Assembly (NCBI GenBank): GCA_030638385.1
Contig: DAOWES010000261.1
Location: forward strand, 1 to 33,816
Source: Candidatus Cloacimonadota bacterium
GTDB lineage: Bacteria > Cloacimonadota > Cloacimonadia > Cloacimonadales > TCS61
Direction of reading: 5' to 3'
DNA: 33,816 nt
In this document: positions 3,937 through 32,161 of the stretch, piece by piece
Layout of the letters: each line of letters opens with the position of its first letter
How positions within the stretch are numbered: the first letter of the stretch is position 1
Translations under genes and position numbers: made by a program
The notes under the pieces: model-generated
What the model saw: the letters and a program-made list of their open reading frames with translations, nothing else
Told to the model about the DNA's origin: nothing
Database searches by the model: none

Positions 3937-3949
3937 TATTTAAATGTTT
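3937..3949 (-). promoter_or_regulatory. Class E TATA-like promoter (coding strand AAACATTTAAATA)
   Basis: TTTAAATA is followed by 21 nt and then ATG 3915, with no SD. Confidence 0.6.
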
Positions 3950-3955
3950 TGGTTG

Positions 3956-3972
3956 GTGTCTTTTTTAGACAC
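3956..3972 (-). other. Perfect 6-bp hairpin GTGTCT-AAAAA-AGACAC
   Basis: It sits between the stop of a 39-codon ORF and the class E promoter. It may be an RNA 3'-end or stability element. Confidence 0.3.
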
Positions 3973-3978
3973 AAACAT

Positions 3979-4098
3979 TTATCTGATCGGAGTTGCTTTC
4001 CCTTCGATGATTAGATCTATTTTGTTATTTGTCCAATCCCTGAAGATCCCTGCCTTTCTTGGGGAGATTCCGGCTTCTCTTAATTCATGATATTTCAT
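3979..4098 (-). CDS. Possible micro-ORF, 39 aa
   Basis: MKYHELREAGISPRKAGIFRDWTNNKIDLIIEGKATPIR. This is the only open frame in the 3916-4136 gap, and no SD was seen. Confidence 0.25.
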   Translation of the reverse strand: MKYHELREAGISPRKAGIFRDWTNNKIDLIIEGKATPIR

Positions 4099-4136
4099 CT
4101 TTCTTTCGAATTTTTGTTCAATTGTATTGTGTGGCC

Positions 4137-4571
4137 TCATTTGGATTTTTCATTGATCTCGAAAACCTTAATCCCAAGATCAGTAATTTGATAATATTTA
4201 TGACGGCTGTCTTTGATCTCTTGGCCGTTTTCTAATGTGTCTGGTTCTTTGTAGTATGCAAATAAATTGTTGACTGTTGTTCCAGGGATTATTTTAAGCT
4301 CTCGGATCCATCCATTGTTTTTTGCTCGGGCCATGAATCGACTTACGCAATTGATCCCTTGGATGTTGCATAATTTTTTTAGATCTGAAGGGGAGAAGGC
4401 CCGAATGTTAAGCGCCATGACTTGAAGAATATTGATTTGATTGATTGAAAGTTTGAAATCTTGTTTGATTTTTACGACAGGATTAAGGTTGAGGTCTAGT
4501 TGTTGGGGGGTGGTGTGTATCTCCTCAAGGGTGGTGGTGGTTAGTATTTTTTTATCTGATTTGTTTTGCAT
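4137..4571 (-). CDS. Winged-helix transcription regulator (about 144 aa from ATG 4571)
   Basis: The C-terminal half has an HTH-plus-wing pattern (FSPSDLKKLCNIQGINCVSRFMARAKNNGWIRE...HKYYQITDLGIKVF). The track start at 4622 is a GTG placed directly against AGGA, so the ATG at 4571 is preferred. The start remains uncertain. Confidence 0.5.
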   Translation of the reverse strand: MQNKSDKKILTTTTLEEIHTTPQQLDLNLNPVVKIKQDFKLSINQINILQVMALNIRAFSPSDLKKLCNIQGINCVSRFMARAKNNGWIRELKIIPGTTVNNLFAYYKEPDTLENGQEIKDSRHKYYQITDLGIKVFEINEKSK

Positions 4572-4795
4572 GGTGTGGATTTTTTTGGACTCTTTTTTAT
4601 TTTTCTCTTTTATTTTTTGCACTCCTGACTAATAATTCCTTCAGCTCCGTCCTTGAGATGCAGCACCTTAGACTACCAGACTTCGCCTGACTTACAATCG
4701 TAAAGAAAAATTAATAACCACCACCACGCCCTTTTTTTAATTTGAGTTTCCTCGTCGGCGTAATAGATTTTTGTTGTTAACAATTATCCGTTACG
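4572..4795 (-). promoter_or_regulatory. Long untranslated leader of the regulator gene (island A, proximal part)
   Basis: The predicted start is about 21 nt after the TATA at 4817-4824. There is no ATG at that point and no ORF. The leader contains GGGCGTGGTGGTGGTTA, GTCAGG twice, and ends in GTCAGGAGT. Confidence 0.4.
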
Positions 4796-4816
4796 AAGAA
4801 TCTTAGAGAATTAGAT

Positions 4817-4829
4817 TATTTAAATGTTT
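4817..4829 (-). promoter_or_regulatory. Class E TATA-like promoter with no ORF at +1
   Basis: AAACATTTAAATA is present, but the sequence 21 nt downstream is CGTAACGG, not ATG. Confidence 0.5.
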
Positions 4830-4832
4830 CTT

Positions 4833-4970
4833 AAAAAATGGGAAAAGAGGTGTGTAACAGATAATTGACCGAAGTAAAAAATCATCACCTCTTCCGGGCT
4901 CTCATGCAAACAAGATTATTTCCGAAGAAATGTGCCCTAAACTTTCAGGAGGTTAAACAACTGATCATCT
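4833..4970 (-). ncRNA. Candidate ORF-less transcript of about 140 nt (island A, distal part)
   Basis: It has its own class E promoter (4992-5004). The longest ATG-initiated frame I found is about 21 codons. It has an ATTTC-UUCG-GAAAT hairpin (4918-4931). It also has an 8-10 bp stem, GGAAGAGGTG (4886-4895) with CACCTCTTTTCC (4841-4852), followed by T6 (4833-4838). Confidence 0.45.
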
Positions 4971-4991
4971 GATTATTACTAGAAGACTATG

Positions 4992-5004
4992 TATTTAAAT
5001 GTTT
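4992..5004 (-). promoter_or_regulatory. Class E TATA-like promoter driving the ORF-less transcript
   Basis: AAACATTTAAATACATAGTC. At +1 the sequence is AGATGATCAG, followed only by a 7-codon frame. Confidence 0.5.
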
Positions 5005-5017
5005 TCTTTGATCAGAA

Positions 5018-5389
5018 TTATGCTGTAGGTTCTGGAACTGGATCCTTATTCTCTTCTTCCGTAGGAGCTTGCACATTACCTTCAAGTAATTCATAAACAG
5101 GCCCAACAACATGAGTACCATAACAAGCTCCGACCTGTTCTTTGATTAAGGAAATCTCTTCTGCAGTAACTTCAACAATTCCGCCAACATTAATTTTTTT
5201 AGCAAGGTTGAATTTCTTAAATTTATCTCGGCCAGTTTCTTGTGGCGCATTTTGAGGCTTGGGAATATTAGCCATTATAGCATTCACACAGACACCATTC
5301 AAAATGGAATTAACATTTTTCCCGTCGATAGTTTCCTGTATGGGCTTACCTCCCAGATTAAGGATCTCTGAATCAAAATTGATTTTCAT
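5018..5389 (-). CDS. Hypothetical protein (123 aa)
   Basis: A class E promoter lies 21 nt upstream of the ATG. No motif recognised. Confidence 0.6.
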   Translation of the reverse strand: MKINFDSEILNLGGKPIQETIDGKNVNSILNGVCVNAIMANIPKPQNAPQETGRDKFKKFNLAKKINVGGIVEVTAEEISLIKEQVGACYGTHVVGPVYELLEGNVQAPTEEENKDPVPEPTA

Positions 5390-5410
5390 AATATTTCTTA
5401 GAGGACTATG

Positions 5411-5423
5411 TATTTAAATGTTT
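5411..5423 (-). promoter_or_regulatory. Class E TATA-like promoter
   Basis: AAACATTTAAATACATAGTC, then 21 nt, then ATG 5389. It overlaps the stop codon of ORF 5414..5638. Confidence 0.6.
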
Positions 5424-5638
5424 TGCCGATCTAAAATATTTTCAATTTGAAATCTTAAATCTTCCAAGACTACAACATCATCAAGAAAGTCTCGGAGCAT
5501 CCATCTTACTGGACAAGCAATATCAAAGGAACAATCTCCTTCTAAATATTCTCCGCAGACCAAATGATATTGACATTCCAATTTTCCTAATGGGAAATTA
5601 TCCGTTACATATGTGGGGGTTGGATTATCTTCTGTCAT
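5414..5638 (-). CDS. Hypothetical Cys-rich protein (74 aa)
   Basis: ORF carrying CQYHLVCGEYLEGDCSFDIACP. Confidence 0.5.
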   Translation of the reverse strand: MTEDNPTPTYVTDNFPLGKLECQYHLVCGEYLEGDCSFDIACPVRWMLRDFLDDVVVLEDLRFQIENILDRQNI

Positions 5639-5651
5639 AGTCTACAATTTA

Positions 5652-5903
5652 TTATGAAACTAATTCGTTATCTGCTTGAATGCTTACAGCCTCTTTTGCC
5701 TGGTTAATTTCAAATCTTCTCACTTGTTTTATCATATATCTTTTTAAAGATTCTTTTGCCCATTGGTTATCTGTAAATTCGTTTTCCATTACTGGCTCTT
5801 CTTCTGTTCCAGTATTAATTTGTGGAATTGGATGAAACCATTTCGTTGCATTAATTACTCTTTGTAATTTCTCGTCGGGTATTGTTAGTGTTATTTTTGC
5901 CAT
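5652..5903 (-). CDS. Hypothetical protein (83 aa) downstream of the fibre gene
   Basis: GGAGG lies 5 nt upstream of the ATG. Confidence 0.6.
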   Translation of the reverse strand: MAKITLTIPDEKLQRVINATKWFHPIPQINTGTEEEPVMENEFTDNQWAKESLKRYMIKQVRRFEINQAKEAVSIQADNELVS

Positions 5904-5912
5904 TTTATCCTC

Positions 5913-8900
5913 CTATGCTGTTATTAATCCTAAATTTACCAACGCTGCGTGTATTCCTACTGCGGTTACTACCACACCAGTTTGTTGTGCTATTGGTGAT
6001 GTCCCATGGAATCCCAATTGTTCTGCTGCGCTTGTCAAAACCTGTACTCCATTAGTCCCAGTTTCATCTGCCTTTATTATAAGGTCTGTGCCATTGAAAG
6101 AAATACTGACATCATCAGCGCCACCAAGCATTAATTTTTGATTATCGTTTGGCATCTTCAACCAATCATTAGAAATATGAACTGCATGATTTCCACCCCA
6201 TCCAATTAAAAAACTATTAGTAATTGTATTTGTAACCGATTGACCAAATACCCCAGAATAAGTTGCAGCTGAACCAGTACCTACATCCACACCAATTCCT
6301 GTAGATGAAGTCCCAAGTAAATCTATATTTAGCCCTACTCCAAATATTCCTTCCTCGTTATTAACATTATCACCTAAAGATGTTCCAAAACTCTTAAAAC
6401 AATTATTATTTCTTCCAGAAACATTACAATAAGGTTTAGTAATATTATGACCAGAACCGCCATAAACTGCGGCATCTCCAGTAATGGAATGCCCTGTACC
6501 CCCACCTATGCTATCTCCTGAGTTTATTGTAGAAGCTCTGGCAGAAGTAAAAATATTGTTACCCGTTACATCTGTCCCAGTTCCTAAATTAAGAATATTA
6601 TCCCCTGTCGAAGTTCCTGCATTGATATTTTGTAAATCAGAAAATGAAACCATTTGGGCATTTATATTTGTAGCTTCTATATCTGAAAGTTTTTTAACAC
6701 TTAATCTATATATTTTCAAAGTAGGAACACCAAAATCTTCATTTGTGACAATTTTTATTGAACCTGTTGCCGTTGCTGTAAAATAAATCAGTCCATCGAA
6801 AGTTGTCCCATAAGAACTATGGACATTAACACCTCCTGCATAAATATTTACAAATTCACCAGCTATATAACTAACATTCAAAACATAATTATTTCCACTT
6901 TCTACTATATTTGATTGTTCCAAATATTCACCATTAGCATCTGCATAAGCATAATAATCCCCTGCATCGTTTCCATAAGACCATGAACCAGATTCAGTCC
7001 ACCCCGTAGAACCATCATCAAATTCTTCATTTGTCATTAACTCCGAGGATATACCCAGAGAAACACTTCCTGTTGCTGTTAAACCATTTGCAGTTACATC
7101 TCCTGTTGCCGTCAAATCTCCCCCGAAAGTAGTAAGTCCAGTGCCAAGAAAATTATAAGTAGGATTGACGTTTGTAGTTCCAAAATTGATGAGAAGATTG
7201 TCAGTATCAAATTCTAAATAATTATCTCCATTGCTTCCAAAAATTGAAGACCCAAACCCTAAAGAGCATTTAGAACTTCCATCATCTAAAAACCAATTCC
7301 AATCACCCTGTATTGTTGGGGCAATAAGTGTTGCACCTGTTATTGTAGAAACATTAGAAATCGCATTATTACCCATATCCAAATTACCAGTCATTGCTTG
7401 AGAACCACTCGTTAAGAAAATTGTTCCACTAGCATCGGGCATTGTTAGAGTTCTAGTATTTCCAGTTGTGATATTTGATAAGTCAACATCAACTGTTTTT
7501 GCATTGTCTGCATTATTAAACCATAAAAAATTACCATCACTGAATGTACTTGAGGCAGGAATGGAAACTCCACCTGCAAATGAACCTACTGGGTTTCCCC
7601 TTATGTCTATTACTTGTGTTCCTAATTCACTTAAAGCAACATTTGTCCAAGTTCCACCAGATACTTGAGTTTGTCTTAAAGGAAGTCTTGCAACTAAAAA
7701 CCCATTACCCCTAAAATCTTTAGGAATTGATGTAACTGAAGTGCCATCTTTATCTGCAATAACATCAGCATCATTTCCATAAGTGTCCAACGGAAGATTC
7801 AAAAATAATTTAGTTTCACCCGTATTACTATTTATTGCACCCCAGATTATAAAATTAAATCTTCTTCCAACTAAAGAATTCCCATTAGCGTCAACAAGAA
7901 TATCTGCTAAATCAAATACTTTCAAATAGGGTGTAGTTGGATGATTTACAATTCTAATTCCGTTTACTGAAATTTGTCTTGATGGGACATCTTGTAAATG
8001 TTTCTGCCATGCCTCTCCAGACGTCATTGTAAAATCAACATCATCAGGTACTCCAACATTTGGTGTAATTATAACAGTTTGAGCCATTCCACTCTCATAT
8101 TCAGCATCAAGTATTCTTAATCTTTCAGCACTTCTTTGAACAGCCCCCCTCCCATCAAAACTTTTAGCATCATTATATAATTGGCCCATATAAGTCCCGT
8201 CAGAGTCGATGGTTGCTGCGGTTGGTAGTATTGTAGTCCCTAGATATGCAAACTCTCCAGTAGGTCTTGATGTTGAAGATTGTAAAATTGCCTCATCTCC
8301 GTTTCTAATAACATAAATATAATTCAATTTGGGATGAGTGTCTGTTCCAGGTGTTAGTTGAATCCTAGCGGCTCCATCAACCCCATCTCCGTTAGTGCAA
8401 TCAAGGACATATTCTCTTTGACCAAAAGCATAAGTAATATCCCCACCGCCAAGTGCTTCAATATCACCAAATACATCATCTCCAATAACAACAGGAACAC
8501 CCGTAGGAACTTGATAACTCATTCCGTCAATTGATTCAACTGATTCTATGAATCTTGAGAAGCTCGGAATTATATTGAAATTCTTATCTCCCAAAACTCC
8601 CAAATTAATGAATTTTATTTCTGTAAGTTCAGACAAATCCGCCCCCCCCTGTTTGACTACAATACAGCAACGACATAAAATATTCTGAACTTCATCTACT
8701 TTAGCATGCTCTTCTTTATCGAAAGAGTCAGCTGCTTTTTTAAGAGAGTCATAAGCGTTTTGACCGTATTGCATTACAGTTTCTTGAGTTGAGGGGTCTA
8801 GATAAATTCTATGAATCGTAAAAAACCCATCAGGAATATTAACCAAAGTACCATCTCCGTTTGGATCATATTTATCTGTTGGAATTTCAGTTTTTACTGC

Positions 8901-10145
8901 TACATTACTTATCGGCGAACCTCTCCAAAAAGCAGGAAAGATAATTTCTGTATCGGCTGCGATAGAACTTATGTTTGGATTTTTCTTGTCAATATCATAA
9001 TTAAATCCAGGACCATAAGCCTTTCCTGAACTCTTGTCAATTTTCAAATTCGTCCCGTTCGCTGAATACACATTGCCCGACACTGACAAAGATGGTCCAA
9101 GCGTATTTACCATATCAAAGAAATGGAGTAGGTTGTCTTGGGTCCATAATGGAGCCGTTGTTGCTTTTCTTATTGTAGTAAATGGTGGCACATCATGTAC
9201 AAGAATACCAAGCAAAGCACAATCTCTTTTTTCATCTTCTATTGGAGCCGTTGCCGAATAAGTTAAATTACCATCAATATCTATAGATACAAATTCGATT
9301 GGAGTTATTCCACTTAATCCTGGCGTTACTGCAATCTTTGCCCCCCATGTGACTTTTGTTGCAGTTGGATTAAGTGGATCTGTATAGCTATCAATAAAAT
9401 ATGCTTCGCCGGCAGCTACGTCCAGTTTTGTTGGATCCACATTAATACTTAATTCTCCGCCGGCAATTAAACCCGTTGAATTTTGCTGAAGATTGTTGAT
9501 ATCTAATTCGTCGATTGCAGTATTTACATTTGTTGATTCTAAAGTTGAAGAAGAATTATCGTAAGGTACTTGGACTGCAGTTACTCCGTGAGGATTACTC
9601 GTATTGGAAATATGCGAATCGATTTGCGCATGAGTATTTGTTCCTATATTTTGAATTACAGTATGATCGATAGCAGTTTGCGCATAATGAATCGAGGTAT
9701 CTGCAATATGTGAATCAATCTGAGTATGGCTATTAGAGCCGATGTCTTGAATGTTTAAGTGAGAGATGCTGCTTTCTGTGAAGTGGATCGTTAAATCTCC
9801 TGTATGGGCTTGGAAATCAGTTTCATCAGTCTTTAAATCAAGGGCTGCCTGCAAATCTGTCTGATCTGAAAGAGTCCCAGTTATTTCTCCCCAATTAACA
9901 TCTTCAAAGACTTCAGGATCAACATATTCAAGAGCATTCCCCCCAGAATTTACCCTTACTATCTTGAGAGCACTTCCAGTTTTAGAGGCAGGAGTATCAA
10001 GAAGTGAATCAAAACTTGCGAAATCATCATCAATTTCAATATTGATCTCGCTTGTTTCCACAACATCTAAATCAATTTCATTTCCTTCATTAATATCTAG
10101 ATCAACAGAAATGTCTTCAACAACATTCAATGAAACGTCATTCAT
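5913..10145 (-). CDS. Tail fibre / receptor-binding protein (1410 aa)
   Basis: This is the largest ORF and the last gene of the tail module. It has a G/S/T/N-rich, beta-type composition. The N-terminus carries tandem His-rich repeats (IQDIGSNSHTQIDSHIADTSIHY and IQNIGTNTHAQIDSHISNTSNPH). The C-terminal tail reads LGFHGTSPIAQQTG...ALVNLGLITA. Confidence 0.75.
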   Translation of the reverse strand: MNDVSLNVVEDISVDLDINEGNEIDLDVVETSEINIEIDDDFASFDSLLDTPASKTGSALKIVRVNSGGNALEYVDPEVFEDVNWGEITGTLSDQTDLQAALDLKTDETDFQAHTGDLTIHFTESSISHLNIQDIGSNSHTQIDSHIADTSIHYAQTAIDHTVIQNIGTNTHAQIDSHISNTSNPHGVTAVQVPYDNSSSTLESTNVNTAIDELDINNLQQNSTGLIAGGELSINVDPTKLDVAAGEAYFIDSYTDPLNPTATKVTWGAKIAVTPGLSGITPIEFVSIDIDGNLTYSATAPIEDEKRDCALLGILVHDVPPFTTIRKATTAPLWTQDNLLHFFDMVNTLGPSLSVSGNVYSANGTNLKIDKSSGKAYGPGFNYDIDKKNPNISSIAADTEIIFPAFWRGSPISNVAVKTEIPTDKYDPNGDGTLVNIPDGFFTIHRIYLDPSTQETVMQYGQNAYDSLKKAADSFDKEEHAKVDEVQNILCRCCIVVKQGGADLSELTEIKFINLGVLGDKNFNIIPSFSRFIESVESIDGMSYQVPTGVPVVIGDDVFGDIEALGGGDITYAFGQREYVLDCTNGDGVDGAARIQLTPGTDTHPKLNYIYVIRNGDEAILQSSTSRPTGEFAYLGTTILPTAATIDSDGTYMGQLYNDAKSFDGRGAVQRSAERLRILDAEYESGMAQTVIITPNVGVPDDVDFTMTSGEAWQKHLQDVPSRQISVNGIRIVNHPTTPYLKVFDLADILVDANGNSLVGRRFNFIIWGAINSNTGETKLFLNLPLDTYGNDADVIADKDGTSVTSIPKDFRGNGFLVARLPLRQTQVSGGTWTNVALSELGTQVIDIRGNPVGSFAGGVSIPASSTFSDGNFLWFNNADNAKTVDVDLSNITTGNTRTLTMPDASGTIFLTSGSQAMTGNLDMGNNAISNVSTITGATLIAPTIQGDWNWFLDDGSSKCSLGFGSSIFGSNGDNYLEFDTDNLLINFGTTNVNPTYNFLGTGLTTFGGDLTATGDVTANGLTATGSVSLGISSELMTNEEFDDGSTGWTESGSWSYGNDAGDYYAYADANGEYLEQSNIVESGNNYVLNVSYIAGEFVNIYAGGVNVHSSYGTTFDGLIYFTATATGSIKIVTNEDFGVPTLKIYRLSVKKLSDIEATNINAQMVSFSDLQNINAGTSTGDNILNLGTGTDVTGNNIFTSARASTINSGDSIGGGTGHSITGDAAVYGGSGHNITKPYCNVSGRNNNCFKSFGTSLGDNVNNEEGIFGVGLNIDLLGTSSTGIGVDVGTGSAATYSGVFGQSVTNTITNSFLIGWGGNHAVHISNDWLKMPNDNQKLMLGGADDVSISFNGTDLIIKADETGTNGVQVLTSAAEQLGFHGTSPIAQQTGVVVTAVGIHAALVNLGLITA

Positions 10146-10146
10146 T

Positions 10147-10494
10147 TTAAGCCGCTCCCGACCGGGTAATATCAGCCTCGATTATAAATGCTCCAGTGCC
10201 GCTTGAATGAATACTTCCGTCACCTTTGATATACTGGACATCGTAAAGATATTTTTTAGGATCAATGTCTGTATCTTCAGAAGTTAATTCTATTGAATGG
10301 ATTCCGGTGGAATTTCCGGCCACCTCTTTTGAAATAATTGCACCAGAATCATCAGTCACAGAAGTTGCAGGGATATCCTCTCGGACGGTAAAATAAATCG
10401 TATAACCAGTAGTGTCGACAAACTCTCCCTTGTTCTTAATATTGATTGTAAATGCTCGAGTATCATTTCTTTTTATTTTGATTGTACTTCCCAT
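10147..10494 (-). CDS. Hypothetical beta-rich virion protein (115 aa)
   Basis: A class L promoter lies 21 nt upstream. The stop lies 1 nt before the fibre ATG. Confidence 0.55.
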   Translation of the reverse strand: MGSTIKIKRNDTRAFTINIKNKGEFVDTTGYTIYFTVREDIPATSVTDDSGAIISKEVAGNSTGIHSIELTSEDTDIDPKKYLYDVQYIKGDGSIHSSGTGAFIIEADITRSGAA

Positions 10495-10515
10495 GATTCA
10501 AGAAGGCGATGAGAT

Positions 10516-10531
10516 GTTTATATATTTATTT
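10516..10531 (-). promoter_or_regulatory. Class L TATA-like promoter (coding strand AAATAAATATATAAAC)
   Basis: The motif is followed by 21 nt and then ATG 10494, with no SD. Confidence 0.6.
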
Positions 10532-11140: not shown

Positions 11141-11270
11141 TTTCTAGGGCCTCCACCCGATCAAACAATTCTTCAATTAATTTTCTAACTTCAAAACCCT
11201 TGAAAGTTCTATCCTTCTCAACCTTTCCTTTCATTTCTTTTCTTAATTGTTTTATATTTTTATTTTCCAT
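11127..11270 (-). CDS. Small coiled-coil protein (47 aa from ATG 11270)
   Basis: MENKNIKQLRKEMKGKVEKDR... The ATG shares one nt with the upstream stop (TAATG). Confidence 0.4.
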   Translation of the reverse strand: MENKNIKQLRKEMKGKVEKDRTFKGFEVRKLIEELFDRVEALENERN

Positions 11271-12714: not shown

Positions 12715-12734
12715 AAGACTTAGAGAGAAAGTTT

Positions 12735-12750
12735 GTTTATATATTTATTT
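12735..12750 (-). promoter_or_regulatory. Class L TATA-like promoter
   Basis: AAAATAAATATATAAAC plus spacer plus ATG 12714. Confidence 0.6.
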
Positions 12751-15813: not shown

Positions 15814-15833
15814 AACAATCAGAAATGAAAATT

Positions 15834-15849
15834 GTTTATATATTTATTT
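15834..15849 (-). promoter_or_regulatory. Class L TATA-like promoter
   Basis: Motif plus spacer plus ATG 15813. It overlaps the stop of the frameshift-extended chaperone. Confidence 0.6.
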
Positions 15850-16434: not shown

Positions 16435-16455
16435 AACAAAATTAACAAGACTATG

Positions 16456-16468
16456 TATTTAAATGTTT
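16456..16468 (-). promoter_or_regulatory. Class E TATA-like promoter inside the late module
   Basis: AAACATTTAAATACATAGTC, then 21 nt, then ATG 16434. Confidence 0.6.
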
Positions 16469-17427: not shown

Positions 17428-17443
17428 GTTTATATATTTATTT
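17428..17443 (-). promoter_or_regulatory. Class L TATA-like promoter
   Basis: Motif plus spacer plus ATG 17407. Confidence 0.6.
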
Positions 17444-17444
17444 A

Positions 17445-17959: not shown

Positions 17960-17975
17960 TTTTATATATTTATTT
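17960..17975 (-). promoter_or_regulatory. Class L TATA-like promoter embedded in the 3' end of the upstream gene
   Basis: AAATAAATATATAAA encodes ...QINI-stop of ORF 17962..18423. It is followed by the spacer and ATG 17939. Confidence 0.55.
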
Positions 17976-18930: not shown

Positions 18931-18945
18931 GTTTATATATTTAAT
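18931..18945 (-). promoter_or_regulatory. Class L TATA-like promoter
   Basis: ATTAAATATATAAAC plus spacer plus ATG 18910. Confidence 0.6.
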
Positions 18946-18948
18946 CAA

Positions 18949-20844: not shown

Positions 20845-21114
20845 TTTATGAATATTGGACCCGGAGGTTTTACCCTCCAACTTATCACGTGATTGCAAAC
20901 TCCTGACCGAATCGGAATTTCTTCTTATCGGAGTGAAAGCTTAGGCCCCATTATTGTGTTGCGCACAAACCACACCCTGCAAGGAATGACCCAACCTTAC
21001 CCGAGATGCCAGTGTCCGTCGGGACCTTAGAGCATTGTCCTTGATGGTTAGTTTTTAGCCGACCCCAAAGAGTTACTTAGGCGAGGGGCTTTTGAATTCC
21101 CGATTCCGCAACAT
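20845..21114 (-). promoter_or_regulatory. G+C-rich structured leader / candidate cis-regulatory RNA (island B)
   Basis: The region runs from the predicted start at 21114 to the GT ATG. A 9-bp closing helix pairs 21098-21106 with 20909-20917, including a G-U pair that would be a C-A mismatch on the other strand. There is a CCCGA...TCGGG hairpin. A GGAGG-GTAAAA-CCTCC hairpin lies at 20863-20878. A 13-codon leaderless mini-ORF spans 21114..21073. Confidence 0.5.
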
Positions 21115-21135
21115 GAGATTCTATGTAATACTACA

Positions 21136-21143
21136 TATATAAA
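21136..21143 (-). promoter_or_regulatory. TATA-like promoter (TTTATATA) of the glycosyltransferase cassette
   Basis: The octamer is followed by exactly 21 nt and then an ATG (21114), the same geometry as the other 14 promoters. Confidence 0.55.
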
Positions 21144-21149
21144 ACTTTC

Positions 21150-21205
21150 TAAGAAAAAGAGTTTGTGGGGACCCGAAGGCCCCCGAATAAAAATAAAAAA
21201 ATAAT
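21150..21205 (-). terminator. Terminator after the capsid gene: T-rich run, GGGGGCC-UUCG-GGUCCCC hairpin, T-run
   Basis: The coding strand reads TTTTTTTATTTTTATTC GGGGGCCTTCGGGTCCCC ACAAACTCTTTTTCTT. The 7-bp stem (one G-U) has a UUCG tetraloop at 21167-21184. The wobble pair works only in the minus-strand RNA. Confidence 0.65.
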
Positions 21206-21215
21206 CTACTTAAGA

Positions 21216-22298: not shown

Positions 22299-22331
22299 TT
22301 TTTTTGTCCCCCTTACAGTACGTTAGGTTTA

Positions 22332-23480: not shown

Positions 23481-23502
23481 AATTCTTTTAGGAAAACATC
23501 TA

Positions 23503-23515
23503 TTTATATATTTAA
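23503..23515 (-). promoter_or_regulatory. Class L TATA-like promoter
   Basis: TTAAATATATAAA plus spacer plus ATG 23480. Confidence 0.55.
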
Positions 23516-23713
23516 TTAAAGCCGCTTGTAGAAAATCCGAACACCTTTCTTCTTCCACTTAACTTTTCCGTGAGATCTTAATCGTCGGAGGGCCTTATTC
23601 ATATTGATCTCTGAACCATCCCCCCACTTTTCATTGAAGATTCTTTTGACAGCCATCCCGTCGGTAAACTTGTCTAGGGTGTCAATGATCTCAAGCATAT
23701 CATCATAATACAT
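23516..23713 (-). CDS. Small basic protein (65 aa), possible DNA-binding
   Basis: ORF between the Mu-F-like gene and the protease gene. The C-terminus is Lys/Arg-rich. Confidence 0.45.
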   Translation of the reverse strand: MYYDDMLEIIDTLDKFTDGMAVKRIFNEKWGDGSEINMNKALRRLRSHGKVKWKKKGVRIFYKRL

Positions 23714-23714
23714 T

Positions 23715-24506: not shown

Positions 24507-24539
24507 TGAATTCTAGTTCGTCCGTATGATATTCCATGA

Positions 24540-25970: not shown

Positions 25971-25992
25971 AAGCTTTTTAAGTTTTTCGTGT

Positions 25993-26006
25993 TTTATATA
26001 TTTATT
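25993..26006 (-). promoter_or_regulatory. Class L TATA-like promoter overlapping the terL stop
   Basis: AATAAATATATAAAA plus spacer plus ATG 25970. Confidence 0.55.
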
Positions 26007-27213
26007 CTTCCGGGCCCCTGCCAACAATTCCAGTTCCAACCGTTTTGACCTTTCGAGATTTCTTCTCCAGGCCATATCTCATCGCATCCATCAGATGATC
26101 GTTTAAATCGATTGGAGTATCAAGCACGTGCTCTTGAGAGTCTGTCTTCCATTTGTATGATCTTAATTCTTTAGCCAAGTTGACAGAGTCTTTTGTTACA
26201 AATAAGGAATTCTGTTTGATGAAGTTTATTCCTCTGAGAATAGATCCCTTCCCTTTCTTTGTCTTGTGTATGTTGAACCCGGCCTGTTTGATATCTCTGA
26301 TTATTTCGGGTCGGGCTGAATCTGCAATGATAGTTGAGTCCCTTTTAAGAGCTCCAGATTCAACTAATGCCTCCAACTTCATAACAATGTTCTCTGAAGT
26401 TAATTCTGTTTGATAGAGAAGCTCCTGAACCATTATTCCCCCTTTAGGATGATATCTGATTCTTACGAGTGTTGTTGGATCGTTAAAACCAAAGTCCATG
26501 CCATACAATTCTTCTCCTTCGAACTCTTCAATCTTAATATCCCTTCCACCCCGATTCACAGCATATTTCCAATGAGGATAAATAGTTGATTTGGGTGCAC
26601 CCCTTTCTCCGAGTCCATAGATCCTCCACATATTCAAATCTCTCTCCTTGAATTTTAGGATCTTTCTGATGATTTCTTTTTCAAGGAATGGATTATCTTT
26701 GTAGGTTGACTTATGGAAAAAGTTATCCTTGTCATCAGCATACTCATCATAGAACCAGTGGAATGTTTCTGAAGGATTATAATCTGACCAAGATTCTTTT
26801 TTGGTTCGCATCATGATTTGCTCAACATCCATTTTCTTCATCGAAAGAACTTCATTGAAATAAGTCCTATCACGTCTTGGCCCACGAACCTTGTCTTCAT
26901 TGTCTGATGAATAAAACCTCACCAAGTTGGATTTTATTCTATACTCATGATGGGATTTGTTGTGCATATTTTTTGAATAGATCCCGTGCTTTTTTAGAAT
27001 ATCTTCCCAGTCTTTCATTGCAGAGATCCTAAGCGCAGGCATCGTATCTCTCACTACATCAATTGTCTCATTTTCCCACTGGCTTAAACATCCAATTAGA
27101 ATTCGATAAAGTATGGACCAAGTTTTTCCTGAAGATGAGCCTCCCTGCAATATCTTCGTGGGATTTTTTTCATCCATCAACATCCGAATATTCGGTGTAA
27201 TAGGAATCTTCAT
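26002..27213 (-). CDS. terL: Terminase large subunit
   Basis: It has Walker A GGSSSGKT and the nuclease-domain motifs IIADSARPE and DHLMDAMRY. AGGAGG lies 5 nt upstream of the ATG. Confidence 0.9.
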   Translation of the reverse strand: MKIPITPNIRMLMDEKNPTKILQGGSSSGKTWSILYRILIGCLSQWENETIDVVRDTMPALRISAMKDWEDILKKHGIYSKNMHNKSHHEYRIKSNLVRFYSSDNEDKVRGPRRDRTYFNEVLSMKKMDVEQIMMRTKKESWSDYNPSETFHWFYDEYADDKDNFFHKSTYKDNPFLEKEIIRKILKFKERDLNMWRIYGLGERGAPKSTIYPHWKYAVNRGGRDIKIEEFEGEELYGMDFGFNDPTTLVRIRYHPKGGIMVQELLYQTELTSENIVMKLEALVESGALKRDSTIIADSARPEIIRDIKQAGFNIHKTKKGKGSILRGINFIKQNSLFVTKDSVNLAKELRSYKWKTDSQEHVLDTPIDLNDHLMDAMRYGLEKKSRKVKTVGTGIVGRGPEE

Positions 27214-27855
27214 TTAGGCCTCCTTCTTCACACAAATAATTCTCTGATATTTCTCGAAGTCTTTGATTACCTTAAGCCTTGTAAAAACTTCTGCACCCAC
27301 TTTTGTCAATGCAGCGATTCCACCAGTTCCCTTTCGAACGTCCAGGATCAATGTTGCGCCAGGCTTCATGACTCTGATTGCTTCATTCAGATAAGTTTCA
27401 ATAGGATAATGGAATCCCCAACTGATGAGGGATGTTACGAGATCCACAGACTCGTCGGCCAACAAAATCTCGTTATCATCTGTTGCGAATTGCGCAAGTG
27501 AATGAACTCCATTGGCCAATAATGTGTCCACTGACAAGTCTAGTGAATTATAAAATGCTCCCTCATCCTTGAAGCCATACCAAATATTATCTTCAGTCTG
27601 GGTTTTGTCGATCATGGTGATGTTGACGATTCCAGAATAAGCTTCTTGTAATAAAATATTTTGAATTCCGATTCCGGATCCAATATCTACCACATTTATC
27701 TGTTCATGATCATCAGTGAAATCCGGTAAGAAATCTTTGTAAGTATCAAAATCTCTTCGGAAGTCAGCTTCAATCTCTTCAGCAGTTACACCTTCTTTGA
27801 GCTGCGTTCTCTGCAGAAGAATAAACTTAATCGCTTCAGGAGTTAGTTTCAACAT
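27214..27855 (-). CDS. Class I SAM-dependent methyltransferase (not an obvious DNA MTase)
   Basis: Motif I is VVDIGSGIGIQ and the post-I region is VNITMIDK...MKPGATLILDV. No (D/N/S)PP(Y/F) motif was seen. Confidence 0.7.
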   Translation of the reverse strand: MLKLTPEAIKFILLQRTQLKEGVTAEEIEADFRRDFDTYKDFLPDFTDDHEQINVVDIGSGIGIQNILLQEAYSGIVNITMIDKTQTEDNIWYGFKDEGAFYNSLDLSVDTLLANGVHSLAQFATDDNEILLADESVDLVTSLISWGFHYPIETYLNEAIRVMKPGATLILDVRKGTGGIAALTKVGAEVFTRLKVIKDFEKYQRIICVKKEA

Positions 27856-28763
27856 TTGAAAACCTCCATCTTGTAGAGCTCGTAAACAATCCTTGCTTCA
27901 TGTAGTGCATCATCTGCTCCCCGGTGAGCTTCAGTATAATCTTCTTTGACTATGATGGCCCATGCCTCTTGAACGCTTGGCCATTTGAATCCGGCCTTGT
28001 TCACATTAGGAATCTTACAGACATCTGTTGCAAGGACCATTGGGCACTCAAGTTCTTTTACCTCAAGTTCTCTTGATCTTAGGAAGTCGAAATCAAATTT
28101 CTTGTTGTAAGCAGTTGCAGGATATTTATCCAGGATCAATTGAATTCTCTCTTTGTCAAGGGGTTTTGCTTTCATGCAATCAATAAATTTCAAATCAGAA
28201 TTATTAAAGATCCAGGCATCGCCATGAGTCCCATCAAGTCCTTCCTCTTTCACAAGTTCATCATAAACAATCTTCGCTTCGCCAGTGTTTAGATCTAACT
28301 CCACAATTCCAACTTCAACAATCAGGCCGCCCCTTTGTAAAAAGTTAGTTGTTTCAATATCAACAATCAAGATCTTCTTCTCTTCCATTGGTTTTTCAGT
28401 AGCCTTGAATTTACTTAAATCTTCTGGTGAGTTGACCATCACGAGCTCAAGCTTCTGATCAGGCATAACTCCAACTTGCTCAACTTCTTGACGTTCAACA
28501 TATCCCCTGGATCTTCCAAGTCTTTTAAGAATCAATTCAATCGCCCACTTCTTTCCTTCATCTGCTGCAGTGAATAATCTATTTTCGGCCACATCAATCA
28601 CGTTCTCTCTCTCTTGATCGCAGAGGACTTTCATCTCCGGATTGTTTTGAAGGAACCTTGTGATGGTTGATCGCTCAACTTTTAGTGTTTCTGCAATCAC
28701 TGCCTGGACTCCGAAAGATCCCTCTAGTGCTTTCTTGAATGTGTCTTCAGTTACTTTTGTCAT
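27849..28763 (-). CDS. Small-terminase-like HTH domain fused to a DEDDh (DnaQ-like) 3'-5' exonuclease; start 28763 (or 28829)
   Basis: The N-terminus GVQAVIAETLKVERSTITRFLQNNPE...IDVAENRLF...KWAIELILKR follows a pattern common in phage TerS and packaging HTH proteins. The C-terminus has Exo I ILIVDIETT, Exo II AYNKKFDFDFL and Exo III HRGADDALHEARI. Confidence 0.6.
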   Translation of the reverse strand: MTKVTEDTFKKALEGSFGVQAVIAETLKVERSTITRFLQNNPEMKVLCDQERENVIDVAENRLFTAADEGKKWAIELILKRLGRSRGYVERQEVEQVGVMPDQKLELVMVNSPEDLSKFKATEKPMEEKKILIVDIETTNFLQRGGLIVEVGIVELDLNTGEAKIVYDELVKEEGLDGTHGDAWIFNNSDLKFIDCMKAKPLDKERIQLILDKYPATAYNKKFDFDFLRSRELEVKELECPMVLATDVCKIPNVNKAGFKWPSVQEAWAIIVKEDYTEAHRGADDALHEARIVYELYKMEVFKC

Positions 28764-28792
28764 GTTCTCTTTTTTGTTGCAATTGTTGCAAT

Positions 28793-29002
28793 TTACTTCA
28801 CGATTCTTGCAGAATAGTGGTTCGGGCACTTAGGGCCATAAACCTTATCAGGGCATTTCTCTCCCTTCATTTTGCAGTAGGGAATTATGTCACCGATCTT
28901 TCCTGGGATTGTCCAGTCAGAGATTATTAATTCTATTCCCATGAGATTATCCATCTTGATCGTTCGGGACTTCTTCTTTGTGTAGTTGTGTTTGCCGTTC
29001 AT
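28793..29002 (-). CDS. Hypothetical protein (69 aa)
   Basis: ORF in the coupled gene train (4-nt overlap upstream). Confidence 0.45.
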   Translation of the reverse strand: MNGKHNYTKKKSRTIKMDNLMGIELIISDWTIPGKIGDIIPYCKMKGEKCPDKVYGPKCPNHYSARIVK

Positions 29003-29187
29003 CCTTTAGACTCCGAGTATTTGTTAGTTAGAATCCACCTTAGCATCCTTCTTATTTTTATCTCGATCTTCTCACCACTGTTTATAACTTGGATGATTTG
29101 TGTGGGGAGTTTTCCTTTTGGTAGATCCCCTAAAATATATCTTTCAAGATCCCCAAGATTCTTACTTAGTATCGCTTCTTTTATCAT
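28999..29187 (-). CDS. Hypothetical protein (62 aa)
   Basis: ORF in the coupled gene train (4-nt overlaps on both sides). Confidence 0.45.
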   Translation of the reverse strand: MIKEAILSKNLGDLERYILGDLPKGKLPTQIIQVINSGEKIEIKIRRMLRWILTNKYSESKG

Positions 29188-29762
29188 TCTTCTTCCCTCA
29201 AATCAAATCCACACTTGGGACATTTGTGATCTTTGTTTAGTTTTCTTTTGTGGGCGCTTACGTTAGTCGTCTCAGTATTTTCGATTCTTTTTACAATTGT
29301 ATCAATACGTTTCAATGAGAATCCAGTGTCTTTGAGGTTTCTTGATCCTTCGAGCTTTTTGAATTCTGTTTTTAGGATCTTTAGATCGTAACCAGTCTTT
29401 TGATTTGTTTCGTTTGCGGCCAGTCTGTAGGCGATCTTCTCTTGGTCAGTAAAATCAGTTATTTTGAGAACTTCGATTTCTTTTGTGCCGCTTGGATCAA
29501 TCATGTAAAATGCTCTGAGTCGGCCGTGGCCTGATAGGACTTGGTTGTTTTCATCAACTTCGATCTTGGTTGTGTAGCCAAATGTGATCAATGAATTTGC
29601 GATATCTTTTACCTGGGCCTCAGTGTGGATCTTAGAATTATCTGGATAAGGTTTGATTTTGTTTAACTTGAGAGTTACTAATTTTCCGTTCTTTCGTTTG
29701 GTCATGGCTTTTCCGATCTCTTTTTCAACTTCAGGGGATTCGAGCTCACTCATTTTCCCCAC
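29184..29762 (-). CDS. ParB-like nuclease-domain (sulfiredoxin-fold) protein with C-terminal zinc ribbon
   Basis: LNKIKPYPDNSKIHTEAQVKDIANSLITFGYTTKIEVDENNQVLSGHGRLRAF matches the ParBc pattern. The C-terminus has CPKCGF. Confidence 0.7.
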   Translation of the reverse strand: MGKMSELESPEVEKEIGKAMTKRKNGKLVTLKLNKIKPYPDNSKIHTEAQVKDIANSLITFGYTTKIEVDENNQVLSGHGRLRAFYMIDPSGTKEIEVLKITDFTDQEKIAYRLAANETNQKTGYDLKILKTEFKKLEGSRNLKDTGFSLKRIDTIVKRIENTETTNVSAHKRKLNKDHKCPKCGFDLREEE

Positions 29763-30018
29763 TGCAGCAATTCACTGCATCCTCTTTATCTTTAAAATCA
29801 TAATTGCAGATCGGACAAACGTATTTGTAAATGATCAGTTGATTCTTTTGGAGTGATCTTCTCACATCGATCCAGAAGCATTGAAAGATTTCTTTGAATG
29901 TCATGTTCCAGATTCTTGTTCGATAGGATCTTGCTTCACAGATGTTTCCTTCACCATCAATGTAATAAAGATATTTTGGCTTTCGTTCGATTGCGTTTGG
30001 GATTATTATCTTACTCAT
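29746..30018 (-). CDS. Hypothetical protein (90 aa) with C-terminal CxxC...CC motif
   Basis: ORF carrying CPICNYDFKDKEDAVNCC. Confidence 0.5.
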   Translation of the reverse strand: MSKIIIPNAIERKPKYLYYIDGEGNICEARSYRTRIWNMTFKEIFQCFWIDVRRSLQKNQLIIYKYVCPICNYDFKDKEDAVNCCSGENE

Positions 30019-30277
30019 CTTTGTGCTCCCAGGAGATTATAAGAAATCCTTGGTAGTAAGTAACATCAGTTATTTCTCTGATGAAAAATATATTATCGTC
30101 TTCAGAATTAAAAACTTGTATCTTTCCAAATTCTCTTTTCTGCATCATATCAATTAATGAATCAAACCTTGCATCATGATATTCGATCTTTCGAAAAGTA
30201 TTTGGTTTTAGTCCAGACTTTTCCTTGTAGTAGAAAAATGGATCTGATTTGAATTGAACAAGTGATCCGTAAGTCAT
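30011..30277 (-). CDS. Hypothetical protein (88 aa from ATG 30277)
   Basis: MTYGSLVQFKSDPFFYYKEK... The ATG is in an ATGA overlap with the stop of the upstream micro-ORF. The track start at 30355 would overlap that ORF. Confidence 0.5.
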   Translation of the reverse strand: MTYGSLVQFKSDPFFYYKEKSGLKPNTFRKIEYHDARFDSLIDMMQKREFGKIQVFNSEDDNIFFIREITDVTYYQGFLIISWEHKDE

Positions 30278-30450
30278 TGGGTCCTCCGCTTGTAAGTTTC
30301 GCAAGTATCGTGATGGTTGAAATAGCATTTGTAGTAATCGCCACGCATCGGGCATTGTTCATAAGTTATTGGACAGGTCACTAGATCTTGATCTTTTGTT
30401 GGGATTTTTCCGTTTCCGATTTCAGTTTTTGCTTCGAGTGTTTTTGCCAT
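30274..30450 (-). CDS. Micro-ORF, 58 aa, Cys/His-rich (not in the ORF track)
   Basis: MAKTLEAKTEIGNGKIPTKDQDLVTCPITYEQCPMRGDYYKCYFNHHDTCETYKRRTQ. Confidence 0.45.
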   Translation of the reverse strand: MAKTLEAKTEIGNGKIPTKDQDLVTCPITYEQCPMRGDYYKCYFNHHDTCETYKRRTQ

Positions 30451-30484
30451 GTTTTCTTCTTTCTTTGCGCACTTTCTTTCTTCT

Positions 30485-30661
30485 TTAGTAGATCTCGAAT
30501 CGGACCTTGACCGTGCATCTAGTCTCTCTCTTTACCTTGTAGCGCTTCATTTCTACACTCTTGATCACTGCAACTTTCTCAAGATTTGTCAACCATGCGA
30601 GAGCTGCATAATCTACAGGCATTGATTCTGAATCCTCATAGAAGGTTTTTTGTTTCTTCAT
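30485..30661 (-). CDS. Micro-ORF, 58 aa (not in the ORF track)
   Basis: MKKQKTFYEDSESMPVDYAALAWLTNLEKVAVIKSVEMKRYKVKRETRCTVKVRFEIY. The ATG is in an ATGA overlap with the stop of the AbrB-like gene. Confidence 0.45.
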   Translation of the reverse strand: MKKQKTFYEDSESMPVDYAALAWLTNLEKVAVIKSVEMKRYKVKRETRCTVKVRFEIY

Positions 30662-30891
30662 TTTGATTTCACCTTCTTCAACAACTTAACAAACTCTTCA
30701 TCAGTTGGAACGTGAGACATATATCCTGAACGAGTCAATTGAATAATTGCTTTTGCAAGGAAGTCTTTTTCAGAATTCTTTGGAATGATCACAACTTCAT
30801 CTCCTGGTTGGATCTTTGAATCTTGGGGGATTGTTACGAACTTGGATTTGTTTGCCTTGTTCTGTTTTACGGTCCTGATTAATTCTTCCAT
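30658..30891 (-). CDS. AbrB/SpoVT-like DNA-binding protein
   Basis: KFVTIPQDSKIQPGDEVVIIPKN fits the swapped-hairpin AbrB motif. Confidence 0.55.
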   Translation of the reverse strand: MEELIRTVKQNKANKSKFVTIPQDSKIQPGDEVVIIPKNSEKDFLAKAIIQLTRSGYMSHVPTDEEFVKLLKKVKSK

Positions 30892-31223
30892 TAGAATTCA
30901 ACCCTCTGAGGAATCTCTTTTAATAAATCGTTTAGGACTTGCACCTTAGAATTGGGATCTGCTTCTCCCTTGATAATATTTTTAATTAGATCTATGGATG
31001 CAAGAAGGACTTTGGAATTCTTACTAACAGACTTCATTTGTTCAGCCCATTGAAATGCTTGAGAATCTAATTCTCGGACCCGATTGTTTGCCGATCTTAA
31101 TTCTCCCTGGGCCTTGCATCTTGCATCAATCTCCACCCTATTTGCTGACCTCGACGAATCAAGAATATTGTTCAATCTCTCAATTTCTTCCTCACACCTT
31201 TTTATTGTTTTTCTTGCCATCAC
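30891..31223 (-). CDS. Coiled-coil protein (110 aa)
   Basis: ORF with heptad-like composition, overlapping both neighbours. Confidence 0.5.
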   Translation of the reverse strand: MMARKTIKRCEEEIERLNNILDSSRSANRVEIDARCKAQGELRSANNRVRELDSQAFQWAEQMKSVSKNSKVLLASIDLIKNIIKGEADPNSKVQVLNDLLKEIPQRVEF

Positions 31224-31441
31224 TTCTTTTTGTTGAATTTATTCTCAAACGCTTGAACACCTTTCACGAGCGCATAAAATAATCCTGGGATTCCGCCAAA
31301 GATAAATAATGCAATGAACCATCCCCAACTGAAGGGTTTATTTTTTTTAGCATAATTTCGATATCCTAATCGATCCTCAAGAAATATCTCTTCGCCTTTT
31401 GGGATGTTTTCAGCAGCAGTTCCTACAACTCGGCCTGCCAT
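31220..31441 (-). CDS. Small membrane protein (73 aa)
   Basis: TM stretch WGWFIALFIFGGIPGLFYALV. Confidence 0.5.
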   Translation of the reverse strand: MAGRVVGTAAENIPKGEEIFLEDRLGYRNYAKKNKPFSWGWFIALFIFGGIPGLFYALVKGVQAFENKFNKKK

Positions 31442-32127
31442 TATTCTGCTGCAACCTCTTCAGGATTTGGGAGAGACCTTGCTTCTTTCGTTCCCTTCTT
31501 TCTTGAAGCGGCTTGATCGTCCAAAAGCTTGTCGATATTCTTTCCACGCTTATCGAAGAATTCTTTTACTGCAGATAATTTTTCCTTAATCTTATTCAAT
31601 AATTCATCTTGCTGCTTCATGGCTTGCTCAACTCGAAGGACGCTTTTTTCTTCCTGGAGTAAAGTTTCTAATCGTTCAGGCCTGTTGGATTCGATCTCCA
31701 TGTACTCCATCAATAAATCTTCAATCTCATTTGTGCTGACGGTGGTGATCTCGTATTTTCCATCAACAAAGTGCATCTCAGTTCTTGCGTTGTCAATGAT
31801 TCCCTTCAATCGAGTCATGATTTCTTTGTCAGAATAAATTTCTCTGATCTTCCGGCAACGCTTTTCAACATTGATATTATGTTCTTTGAAGATCGCTTTT
31901 AAATTTTCAGATTTCTTGTCCTTGGATTCGATAGTTTGTTTCATCACCATCAGATTTACTTTGATTGATTCAATTCGATGAGGCCCTTCTTGGATCTTTT
32001 TGTCAGTCATCATTTTAGCCATTAAGTTTGCCCGGTAATTCTCGATAAGACTTGCTTCATCGTGAGTGACTGTTTCTTTGAAAGTTATTTTTTCTTTGTC
32101 CTGAGTGATCTCAATTTTATCTTCCAT
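31441..32127 (-). CDS. Hypothetical coiled-coil protein (228 aa)
   Basis: A class E promoter lies 21 nt upstream of the ATG. No motif recognised. Confidence 0.6.
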   Translation of the reverse strand: MEDKIEITQDKEKITFKETVTHDEASLIENYRANLMAKMMTDKKIQEGPHRIESIKVNLMVMKQTIESKDKKSENLKAIFKEHNINVEKRCRKIREIYSDKEIMTRLKGIIDNARTEMHFVDGKYEITTVSTNEIEDLLMEYMEIESNRPERLETLLQEEKSVLRVEQAMKQQDELLNKIKEKLSAVKEFFDKRGKNIDKLLDDQAASRKKGTKEARSLPNPEEVAAE

Positions 32128-32148
32128 GCAGAACTATGTAATAATACG

Positions 32149-32161
32149 TATTTAAATGTTT
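32149..32161 (-). promoter_or_regulatory. Class E TATA-like promoter
   Basis: AAACATTTAAATA, then 21 nt (containing ACATAGTTC), then ATG 32127. Confidence 0.6.

Follow-up and report, generated by a model that had tools for sequence, protein, structure and literature searches.

Probable archaeal-type core promoters in the genome of an uncultured tailed virus

The window analyzed here is the whole 33,816-nt stretch of contig DAOWES010000261.1, which belongs to an uncultured tailed virus (Caudoviricetes). The first and last 141 bp form an identical direct repeat (1-141 and 33676-33816), and a ParB-like gene on the minus strand, with its ATG at 360, crosses the junction to 32863. Because of the end repeat and the gene that spans the junction, we regard the contig as a complete viral genome of ~33.7 kb, either circular or terminally redundant. 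All credible genes are located on the minus strand. This coding strand also carries 15 short motifs, each with an A/T octamer, and these motifs are the subject of this study. Judging from sequence features, we think it likely that they are host-type archaeal core promoters that express this one-directional genome.

Gene identities in the window were assigned using PHROGs and Pfam, and all coordinates below refer to the minus strand unless a relative is named. The gene terL (27213-26002), which has a Shine-Dalgarno (SD) sequence, is followed by the portal gene (25970-24540, 476 amino acids) and a Mu-F-like gene downstream of it. A gene of 382 amino acids (ATG 23480), whose orthologs in relatives carry Peptidase_S78, precedes the SD-led HK97-type major capsid gene (22298-21216), whose versions in relatives carry PF25209. 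Then come the genes for a glycosyltransferase (20844-18949), the tail tube protein (17407-16469, 312 amino acids), a tape-measure-like protein (15813-14641, 390 amino acids) and a protein of 1410 amino acids (10145-5913). The capsid, portal and tube proteins had zero matches among 50,697 GenBank phage and virus records. Metagenomes contain a family of relatives of 33-38 kb, some of which come from the Site-F cold seep in the South China Sea (PMC9357000). The relatives were fetched as 21-kb stretches or whole contigs, and their capsid identity to the window ranges from 81% to 49%.

The A/T octamers are TATATAAA in eight motifs (class L), TTTAAATA in six (class E) and TTTATATA in one. Exact copies of the class L core TAAATATATAAR number 8, where 0.01 would be expected, and those of the class E 13-mer AAACATTTAAATA number 6, compared with 0 expected from shuffled sequence. 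The full class L 16-mer AAATAAATATATAAAC occurs exactly four times, at 10516, 12735, 15834 and 17428, and four more times with one or two mismatches, at 17960, 18931, 23502 and 25992. An earlier reading of this DNA from its letters alone (the sequence-only reading) had listed the last two at 23503 and 25993, which are the positions of the core TAAATATATAAR and not of the 16-mer. When we rechecked that list, all 15 motifs were found at their places on the minus, that is, the coding strand. The fifteenth, the TTTATATA variant at 21136-21143, had been described as a hybrid of the two classes. We assign it instead to a subclass of E, because it has TATTACATAG in common with the site at 32149 and because the closest relative, L015, has an exact class E 13-mer there. 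The terms early (E) and late (L) serve here as labels for the classes and not as findings.

In the window, class L motifs precede virion genes only. The motif GAATAAATATATAAAA at 25992-26007 overlaps the stop codon of terL and leads to the portal gene (ATG 25970), the Mu-F-like gene and a gene of 65 amino acids. The one at 23502-23517 leads to the 382-amino-acid gene and then to the capsid gene. Two motifs, at 18931-18946 and 17960-17975, precede a gene of 173 amino acids (ATG 18910), which is followed by one of 153, and a gene of 164 amino acids (ATG 17939), respectively. The tail tube gene (ATG 17407) is preceded by the motif at 17428-17443, and the tape-measure-like gene (ATG 15813), followed by genes of 152 and 484 amino acids, by the motif at 15834-15849. 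Downstream of the motif at 12735-12750 there are a gene of 125 amino acids (ATG 12714), one of 355, a DUF1353 gene and one of 107 amino acids. Finally, the motif at 10516-10531 precedes a gene of 115 amino acids (ATG 10494), followed by genes of 1410, 83 and 74 amino acids. A ninth L-like motif, AAATAAAAATATAAAA (11250-11265), has two mismatches and overlaps the end of the 355-amino-acid gene, with only 15 nt between it and an ATG. We did not count it as a class L site because this spacing is wrong, and it probably does not act as a leaderless promoter.

Class E motifs precede a different set of units: a 15-gene unit that ends with terL, the glycosyltransferase gene, the tail chaperone gene, a gene of 123 amino acids, a run of small genes and two units without an open reading frame (ORF). 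The 15-gene unit follows the motif at 32149-32161. It begins with a gene of 228 amino acids (ATG 32127), continues with ~14 more genes, the last being terL, and includes genes for ParB-like (189 amino acids) and exonuclease-like (326 amino acids) proteins and a methyltransferase; more than half of its later genes have SD-like motifs. The site of the E subclass (E2; GAAAGT plus TTTATATA, 21136-21149) is followed by an ATG at 21114 that opens 12 codons only, and the glycosyltransferase gene starts at ATG 20844. The motif at 16456-16468 precedes a gene of 104 amino acids (ATG 16434), which is called the tail assembly chaperone gene by its position between the tube and tape-measure-like genes. The monocistronic gene of 123 amino acids (ATG 5389) follows the motif at 5411-5423. 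The motif at 4992-5004 has no real ORF, only one of 7 codons at 23 nt. The motif at 4817-4829 has no ATG at the leaderless position, and an ORF resembling winged helix-turn-helix (wHTH) proteins (4571-4137) and a helix-turn-helix (HTH)-like ORF of 53 amino acids (4140-3979) are found further on. From the motif at 3937-3949 and its first gene (ATG 3915, 103 amino acids), a long run of SD-led small genes, including YopX, HNH and others, extends to 1203. Read-through from this last unit across the circular junction may occur.

Counted from the final base of the octamer, an ATG follows after 21 or 22 nt at 13 of the 15 sites (chance probability ~8e-17), and 12 of these 13 ATGs open real genes of 103-476 codons. 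The sequence-only reading had reported 12 such ATGs about 21 nt past the octamer, in agreement with these measurements. A rescan for any TATA octamer matching at 8 of 8 positions and followed, with the proper spacing, by an ATG that opens an ORF returned the same 12 sites and zero on the opposite strand. The octamer occupies positions -29 to -22 relative to the A of the ATG, and its palindromic core, ATATATAA or ATTTAAAT, is centered at -26.5. Immediately upstream of it is an A/purine-rich element like the TFB recognition element (BRE), which reads RAAAC-A in class E; this is the purine stretch to which the sequence-only reading had pointed. The octamers themselves match archaeal TATA consensus forms (TTTAWATA-type). 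In all 12 promoter-led genes the base at -1 is T or C, so that with the A of the ATG at +1 a pyrimidine/purine initiator is formed. The centering of a TATA box ~26-27 bp before the transcription start fits only if the start is the ATG.

The motifs are packed into intergenic gaps of 30-35 nt and often overlap the preceding stop codon. Such a location exactly at gene boundaries is reminiscent of the module-boundary sequences of some phages, and the motifs might then be sites of RNA processing, binding sites of packaging or replication proteins, or relics of recombination between gene modules. We consider this extremely improbable. The motifs are oriented strictly on one strand at a fixed distance from the ATG, they are identical to BRE/TATA consensus forms, they are anticorrelated with SD sequences, and they are also found before ORF-less units that end in T-runs; sites of the kinds just listed would not be expected to show any of these features.

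The anticorrelation with SD sequences is pronounced. None of the 12 promoter-led genes has an SD-like motif, compared with ~22 of the 41 other genes in the window (Fisher p = 6e-4). Family-wide, the motif is found in 1 of 58 promoter-led genes and in 55 of 148 other genes (p = 1.5e-8; background ~15%). Internal cistrons carry GGAGG-type SDs, and the three examples that had been singled out before, at terL, 5903 and 3002, are all correct, as is the general contrast between promoter-led and internal genes that they were meant to illustrate. The start codon is ATG in 12 of 12 promoter-led genes, and several internal genes would begin with GTG or TTG by the longest-ORF call.

The same arrangement is conserved in the family. 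A search for TATATAA[AG] with an ATG that opens an ORF 21-22 nt behind it gave 49 sites in the window and eight relatives. These sites occupy orthologous positions ahead of the genes for the portal, protease, connector, tube, tape measure and tail. Across the eight relatives, with capsid identities down to 49%, the class L motif does not vary between orthologous sites. Although they were outside the search pattern, the TAAA before the octamer and the purines at -15/-14 (counted from the 3′ end of the octamer) are nearly invariant. The bases before the octamer at the 49 sites read R-R-W-T-A-A-A, and beyond them the upstream sequence carries no information. In the alignment of the region upstream of the tube gene (A2), which contains the footprint of the motif at 17428, the 12-mer and the ATG are the sole invariant blocks, and the spacer has otherwise diverged. 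In a few relatives the ATG is farther from the motif. The leader in L009 is 36 nt long and contains AGGAG, which fits a start site that is set by the promoter and not by the ATG. An exact scan of IMG/VR with the class L 15-mer gave, among the matches listed, only single chance matches in unrelated contigs, which were not informative.

Geometry, BRE, the pyrimidine at -1, the division of SD sequences and conservation thus all agree with the archaeal transcription architecture that the sequence-only reading had proposed. Under this reading, the TBP and TFB of the host would occupy the TATA box and the BRE and bring in the RNA polymerase of the host. The polymerase would start at the A of the ATG, between the pyrimidine at -1 and the purine at +1, and the first cistron would therefore be leaderless, with the initiator tRNA pairing directly with the 5′ AUG. 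Downstream cistrons would be translated through their GGAGG-type SDs.

The two classes seem to differ in more than their sequences. The glycosyltransferase and chaperone genes are preceded by E-type promoters in several relatives, and these promoters are lineage-specific in sequence. At the chaperone position, L015, L016, L001 and L002 have an E-type promoter and L008 has an L-like variant. Relative L013 has its own E-type form, AGAAAG-TTTTAWAWA...ATATGT-ATG. Between a weaker TATA box and the ATG, the perfect palindrome ATGTTTAAACAT occurs four times in L001 (818, 2289, 11176 and 16183) and three times in L002 (109, 11165 and 15553), compared with ~0.1 expected. It is operator-like, and the window has no such site. 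HTH-like ORFs lie within the region of clustered E promoters in the window; the HTH or wHTH candidates are the ORFs 4571-4137, 4140-3979 and 915-659. The invariance of class L, together with the co-evolution, lineage specificity and operators of class E, suggests that class L is most likely an unregulated promoter of maximal strength. Class E would most likely be the regulated class, controlled by virus-encoded HTH or wHTH proteins that bind between the TATA box and the start site. As a separate observation, a leaderless ORF for a membrane protein of ~35 amino acids (MKK..W..FW..YWA.RQEE) separates the E-type promoter from the chaperone gene in L002 (15560-15675) and L016 (~7180-7285), and it is not present in the window.

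The opposite logic could also apply within the same archaeal architecture. Class E would then comprise plain host-type early promoters, and class L late promoters that need a family-conserved viral activator, or a modified TBP or TFB, to read the 12-bp motif. A requirement for an activator would explain the invariance of L across capsids down to 49% identity. In favor of this logic, the L core, at 12 bp, is longer than a TATA box. The restriction of L to virion genes points the same way, and so does the E box TTTAAATA, which we take to be the TATA box of the SSV1 T6 promoter, a classical strong archaeal one. However, the four extra bases of L fall exactly at the BRE and fit RNWAAW, the Sulfolobus BRE consensus, so that host TFB alone could explain them. 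No conserved candidate activator was identified, and the lineage-specific operator-like sequences are in class E, not in class L. We find this exchange of roles rather unlikely, and we prefer the reading in which class E is the regulated one.

Three promoters lack a recognizable ORF (21136, 4992 and 4817). The unit at 4992 has a predicted transcript of ~140 nt (~4970-4830) with a T6 run at its end, directly before the promoter at 4817. It has TGATGA and CTGA boxes reminiscent of C/D-box RNAs, with no match in Rfam. The unit at 4817, with a possible RNA at 4795 to ~4700, has an untranslated stretch of ~225 nt ahead of the wHTH-like ORF (probable ATG 4571, end 4137). The E2 promoter is separated from the glycosyltransferase ATG by an untranslated, GC-rich stretch of 267 nt (21114-20848, 48% GC), which contains a GGAGG...CCTCC hairpin and has no Rfam match. 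This stretch is not found in L015 or L016: the promoter in L016 is leaderless on the glycosyltransferase gene, and L015 has an ORF of 51 amino acids there. The 267-nt stretch may have arisen as an insertion, or it may be a leader with a regulatory role. When two ORF-less transcripts and the gap 916-1203 were compared by BLAST with the relatives then fetched, none of the three noncoding stretches was conserved.

A terminator-like element follows the capsid gene (21154-21205), consisting of T7, T5, the hairpin GGGGGCC-TTCG-GGTCCCC and T5. The structural module has no other strong element of this kind. The layout of T-run, GC hairpin and T-run is kept in L015 (~9520-9590) and L016 (~2735-2790) with different stem sequences. 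We also considered the depletion of T-runs on the sense strand as a sign of oligo-T termination and rejected it, as composition accounts for the depletion (3-fold observed, 3.7-fold expected). In the family, HNH homing-endonuclease genes are inserted in the structural module of L001 and L016, and Hint/intein domains (PF07591, PF14890) are present in several terL genes (P0062, P0078, P0114, P0138 and P0163).

The host was examined through the relatives. The archaeal bin labels among them are 'archaeon', Promethearchaeia/Promethearchaeota, Woesearchaeota (two contigs of one bin) and, for a distant relative, 'uncultured archaeon'. In L013, whose terL is 71% identical, a tRNA-Met(CAT) gene at 4349-4420 scores 56 bits against the Rfam tRNA family and is located just upstream of the early E-type promoter of that genome. 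This tRNA has an A1:U72 pair, the ends AGC...GCUA and the anticodon loop CCCAUAA with C33. We take the A1:U72 pair as a mark of archaeal and eukaryal initiators, those of bacteria being of the C1xA72 type; C33 is presumably as in vertebrate initiators. An initiator-type tRNA is a notable cargo in a virus that would rely on leaderless translation. Other viral tRNAs in the family are a tRNA-Gly in L011 and a tRNA-Phe and a tRNA-Gly in L014. Scans of the window for tRNAs and Rfam families found nothing, and relaxed ARAGORN settings yielded noise only. A tRNA-like 3′ half, GAGATACCGGTTCGAATCCGGGGATGTGCA, at ~1030-1060 in the gap 916-1203 resembles the 3′ half of the tRNA-Met of L013. It is probably a viral tRNA gene in decay, as neither ARAGORN nor Rfam calls a tRNA there and no gene for an integrase turned up.

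The archaeal host implied by the sequence-only reading agrees with most of the bin labels and with the tRNA of L013, and it disagrees with two bacterial labels. The host is probably an archaeon. Two further leads on the host were rejected. We asked whether the 69-kb 'uncultured archaeon' contig L012 represents an integrated provirus; the 21 kb fetched from it are themselves viral, and with a capsid identity of only 29% the contig gives no information on integration into an archaeal chromosome. Kinship with the viruses of Asgard enrichments was considered as well. The preprint on these viruses describes NMV1 as 96.6 kb and the HK97-fold capsid of NMV2 as found by structural modeling only, and its descriptions gave no link.

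Several observations weigh against the archaeal promoter reading. The closest bin-labeled relative of the window, L008 (capsid 67%), is labeled Bacteroidales, and one member of the P0031 cluster is labeled Elusimicrobiota; since four different labels occur within one cluster of 90% identity, binning is unreliable here. Among GenBank phage and virus records, the best cultured-virus match of terL is to Flavobacterium phages, with 35% identity, and RusA, YopX, Mu-F and HNH are genes that phages commonly have. A relative encodes a UDP-glucose dehydrogenase, for which the nearest named homologs are from Patescibacteria. We tried this enzyme as a host marker and set it aside as not decisive, because it had Patescibacteria-labeled homologs only, at ~51% identity. 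According to a review, SD sequences are rare in Lokiarchaea (PMC12993045), and the strong internal SDs fit poorly with an Asgard host. The three promoters without an ORF, 3 of 15, also count on this side, and their predicted transcripts fold like shuffled sequence (z = 0.06 for the 267-nt stretch, 0.00 and -1.16), which gives no support for structured RNAs. Searches of the early proteins against Pfam, PHROGs and PDB (phmmer) revealed no viral TBP, TFB or other transcription factor. The candidate regulators are HTH calls made by eye, and profile searches gave no confirmation of any. Moreover, the leaderless state of each promoter-led first cistron is a prediction from geometry alone.

Some of these points would suit a bacteriophage whose host belongs, for instance, to Bacteroidota, Patescibacteria or Elusimicrobiota. 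In that case, the motifs would be -10-like late promoters read by a phage-modified bacterial RNA polymerase in the style of T4 TATAAATA, with SD-less leaders of ~14 nt. Besides the two bacterial labels, the dehydrogenase and the affinity of terL, the resemblance of TATATAAA to TATAAT and to TATAAATA speaks for this. However, a start 7 nt past the motif leaves the constant distance of 21-22 nt to the ATG at 49 sites in diverged genomes unexplained. Sigma-70 promoters have -35 and -10 hexamers spaced by 16-18 bp, with the -10 hexamer ~7 nt before the start. There is neither a -35 element nor a TG extension, no information content was seen upstream of the BRE-like element, and positions -12 to -7 are not TATAAT-like. 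A consensus scan of the window found 46 sigma-70-like sites, compared with 48.9 in shuffles. No sigma factor and no homolog of gp55 or gp33 turned up among the ORFs scanned against PHROGs and Pfam. The Bacteroidota sigma-ABfr promoter has TAnnTTTG at -7 and TTTG at -33; the TAnnTTTG element, read by eye, is present in only 1 of 12 upstream regions (16434). Bacteroidota and their phages largely lack SD sequences, whereas internal SDs are frequent in the window and strong GGAGG SDs are found on internal genes even in the 'Bacteroidales' contig L008 (7 of 15, compared with a background of 13%). The A1:U72 pair in the tRNA-Met of L013 is a further argument against a bacterial host. We therefore judge a bacteriophage improbable and retain archaeal core promoters as the preferred explanation.

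A more specific proposal can be made only tentatively, and we regard it as unlikely in its full form: the family would infect an uncultivated archaeon of seeps or sediments, either Asgard (Promethearchaeota) or DPANN (Woesearchaeota), and the operators of class E would constitute a virus-encoded switch. If this were true, the invariant promoter, made up of a BRE and TATATAAA(A/G) and also matching the eukaryotic TATAWAWR box perfectly, would report the basal transcription grammar of that host, and the initiator-type tRNA of L013 its translation-initiation grammar. The class E switch would separate enzymes and chaperones from the virion proteins that are needed in stoichiometric amounts. For an Asgard or DPANN host, the promoter models given here would rank with the first explicit ones of the lineage.

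The archaeal layout is important mainly as a pointer to an archaeal host. With promoter geometry and the dichotomy between leaderless and SD-led genes, raw viral sequence may reveal to which domain a host belongs, and this works even where capsid, portal and tube have no counterpart in deposited phage and virus genomes. The sharply defined BRE/TATA set, presumably very strong, could be used in archaeal in vitro transcription or as expression elements. The second, operator-bearing promoter class could reveal virus-encoded regulators.

Among known systems, the late promoters of T4, with TATAAATA at -10 and gp55, gp33 and gp45, are similar in that a short A/T-rich motif without a -35 element precedes virion genes. 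They differ in that the -10 element of T4 is followed by an SD-bearing leader, whereas the ATG in our virus is fixed at 21-22 nt and SD-less; in addition, no gp55-like protein was found in the virus, and a BRE-like element orients its motif. A closer likeness is seen in the T6 promoter of SSV1, which presumably reads AAAGTTTAAATA; the BRE and TATA box of class E, AAACATTTAAATA, are almost the T6 sequence.

In archaea, the TATA box is located at ~-27 and the BRE at ~-33 from the transcription start, leaderless mRNAs come mainly from the first genes of operons, and 95% of them start with AUG (PMC5316973). The BRE is A-rich and adjoins the TATA box, and in leaderless mRNAs a T(A/G) initiator overlaps the start codon (PMC7289017). 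The viral motifs resemble the promoters of Saccharolobus solfataricus, Haloferax volcanii and Thermococcus in the 8-bp TATA box ~26-27 bp before the start, the A-rich BRE and the pyrimidine-purine initiator. They also resemble mapped archaeal promoters in the AUG-only first genes, leaderless by prediction here, and the SDs on internal genes (PMC5316973, PMC7289017). Unlike mapped archaeal promoters, which follow a degenerate consensus, the viral elements are near-identical copies (a 12-bp L core and a 13-bp E motif) that lie in gaps of 30-35 nt over stop codons, and their start is predicted from sequence. An RNA polymerase gene is not known from any archaeal virus, and the genomes of archaeal viruses carry host-like promoter elements (bioRxiv 10.64898/2026.09.13.751334). 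Because the layout is a textbook one and archaeal viruses are not known to bring a polymerase of their own, the promoter mechanism is of an already known kind. Our virus resembles cultivated archaeal viruses in its presumed reliance on the TBP, TFB and RNA polymerase of the host, with no viral polymerase. It differs from them as a tailed virus of marine sediment or seep metagenomes that has eight copies of an invariant promoter in its structural module.

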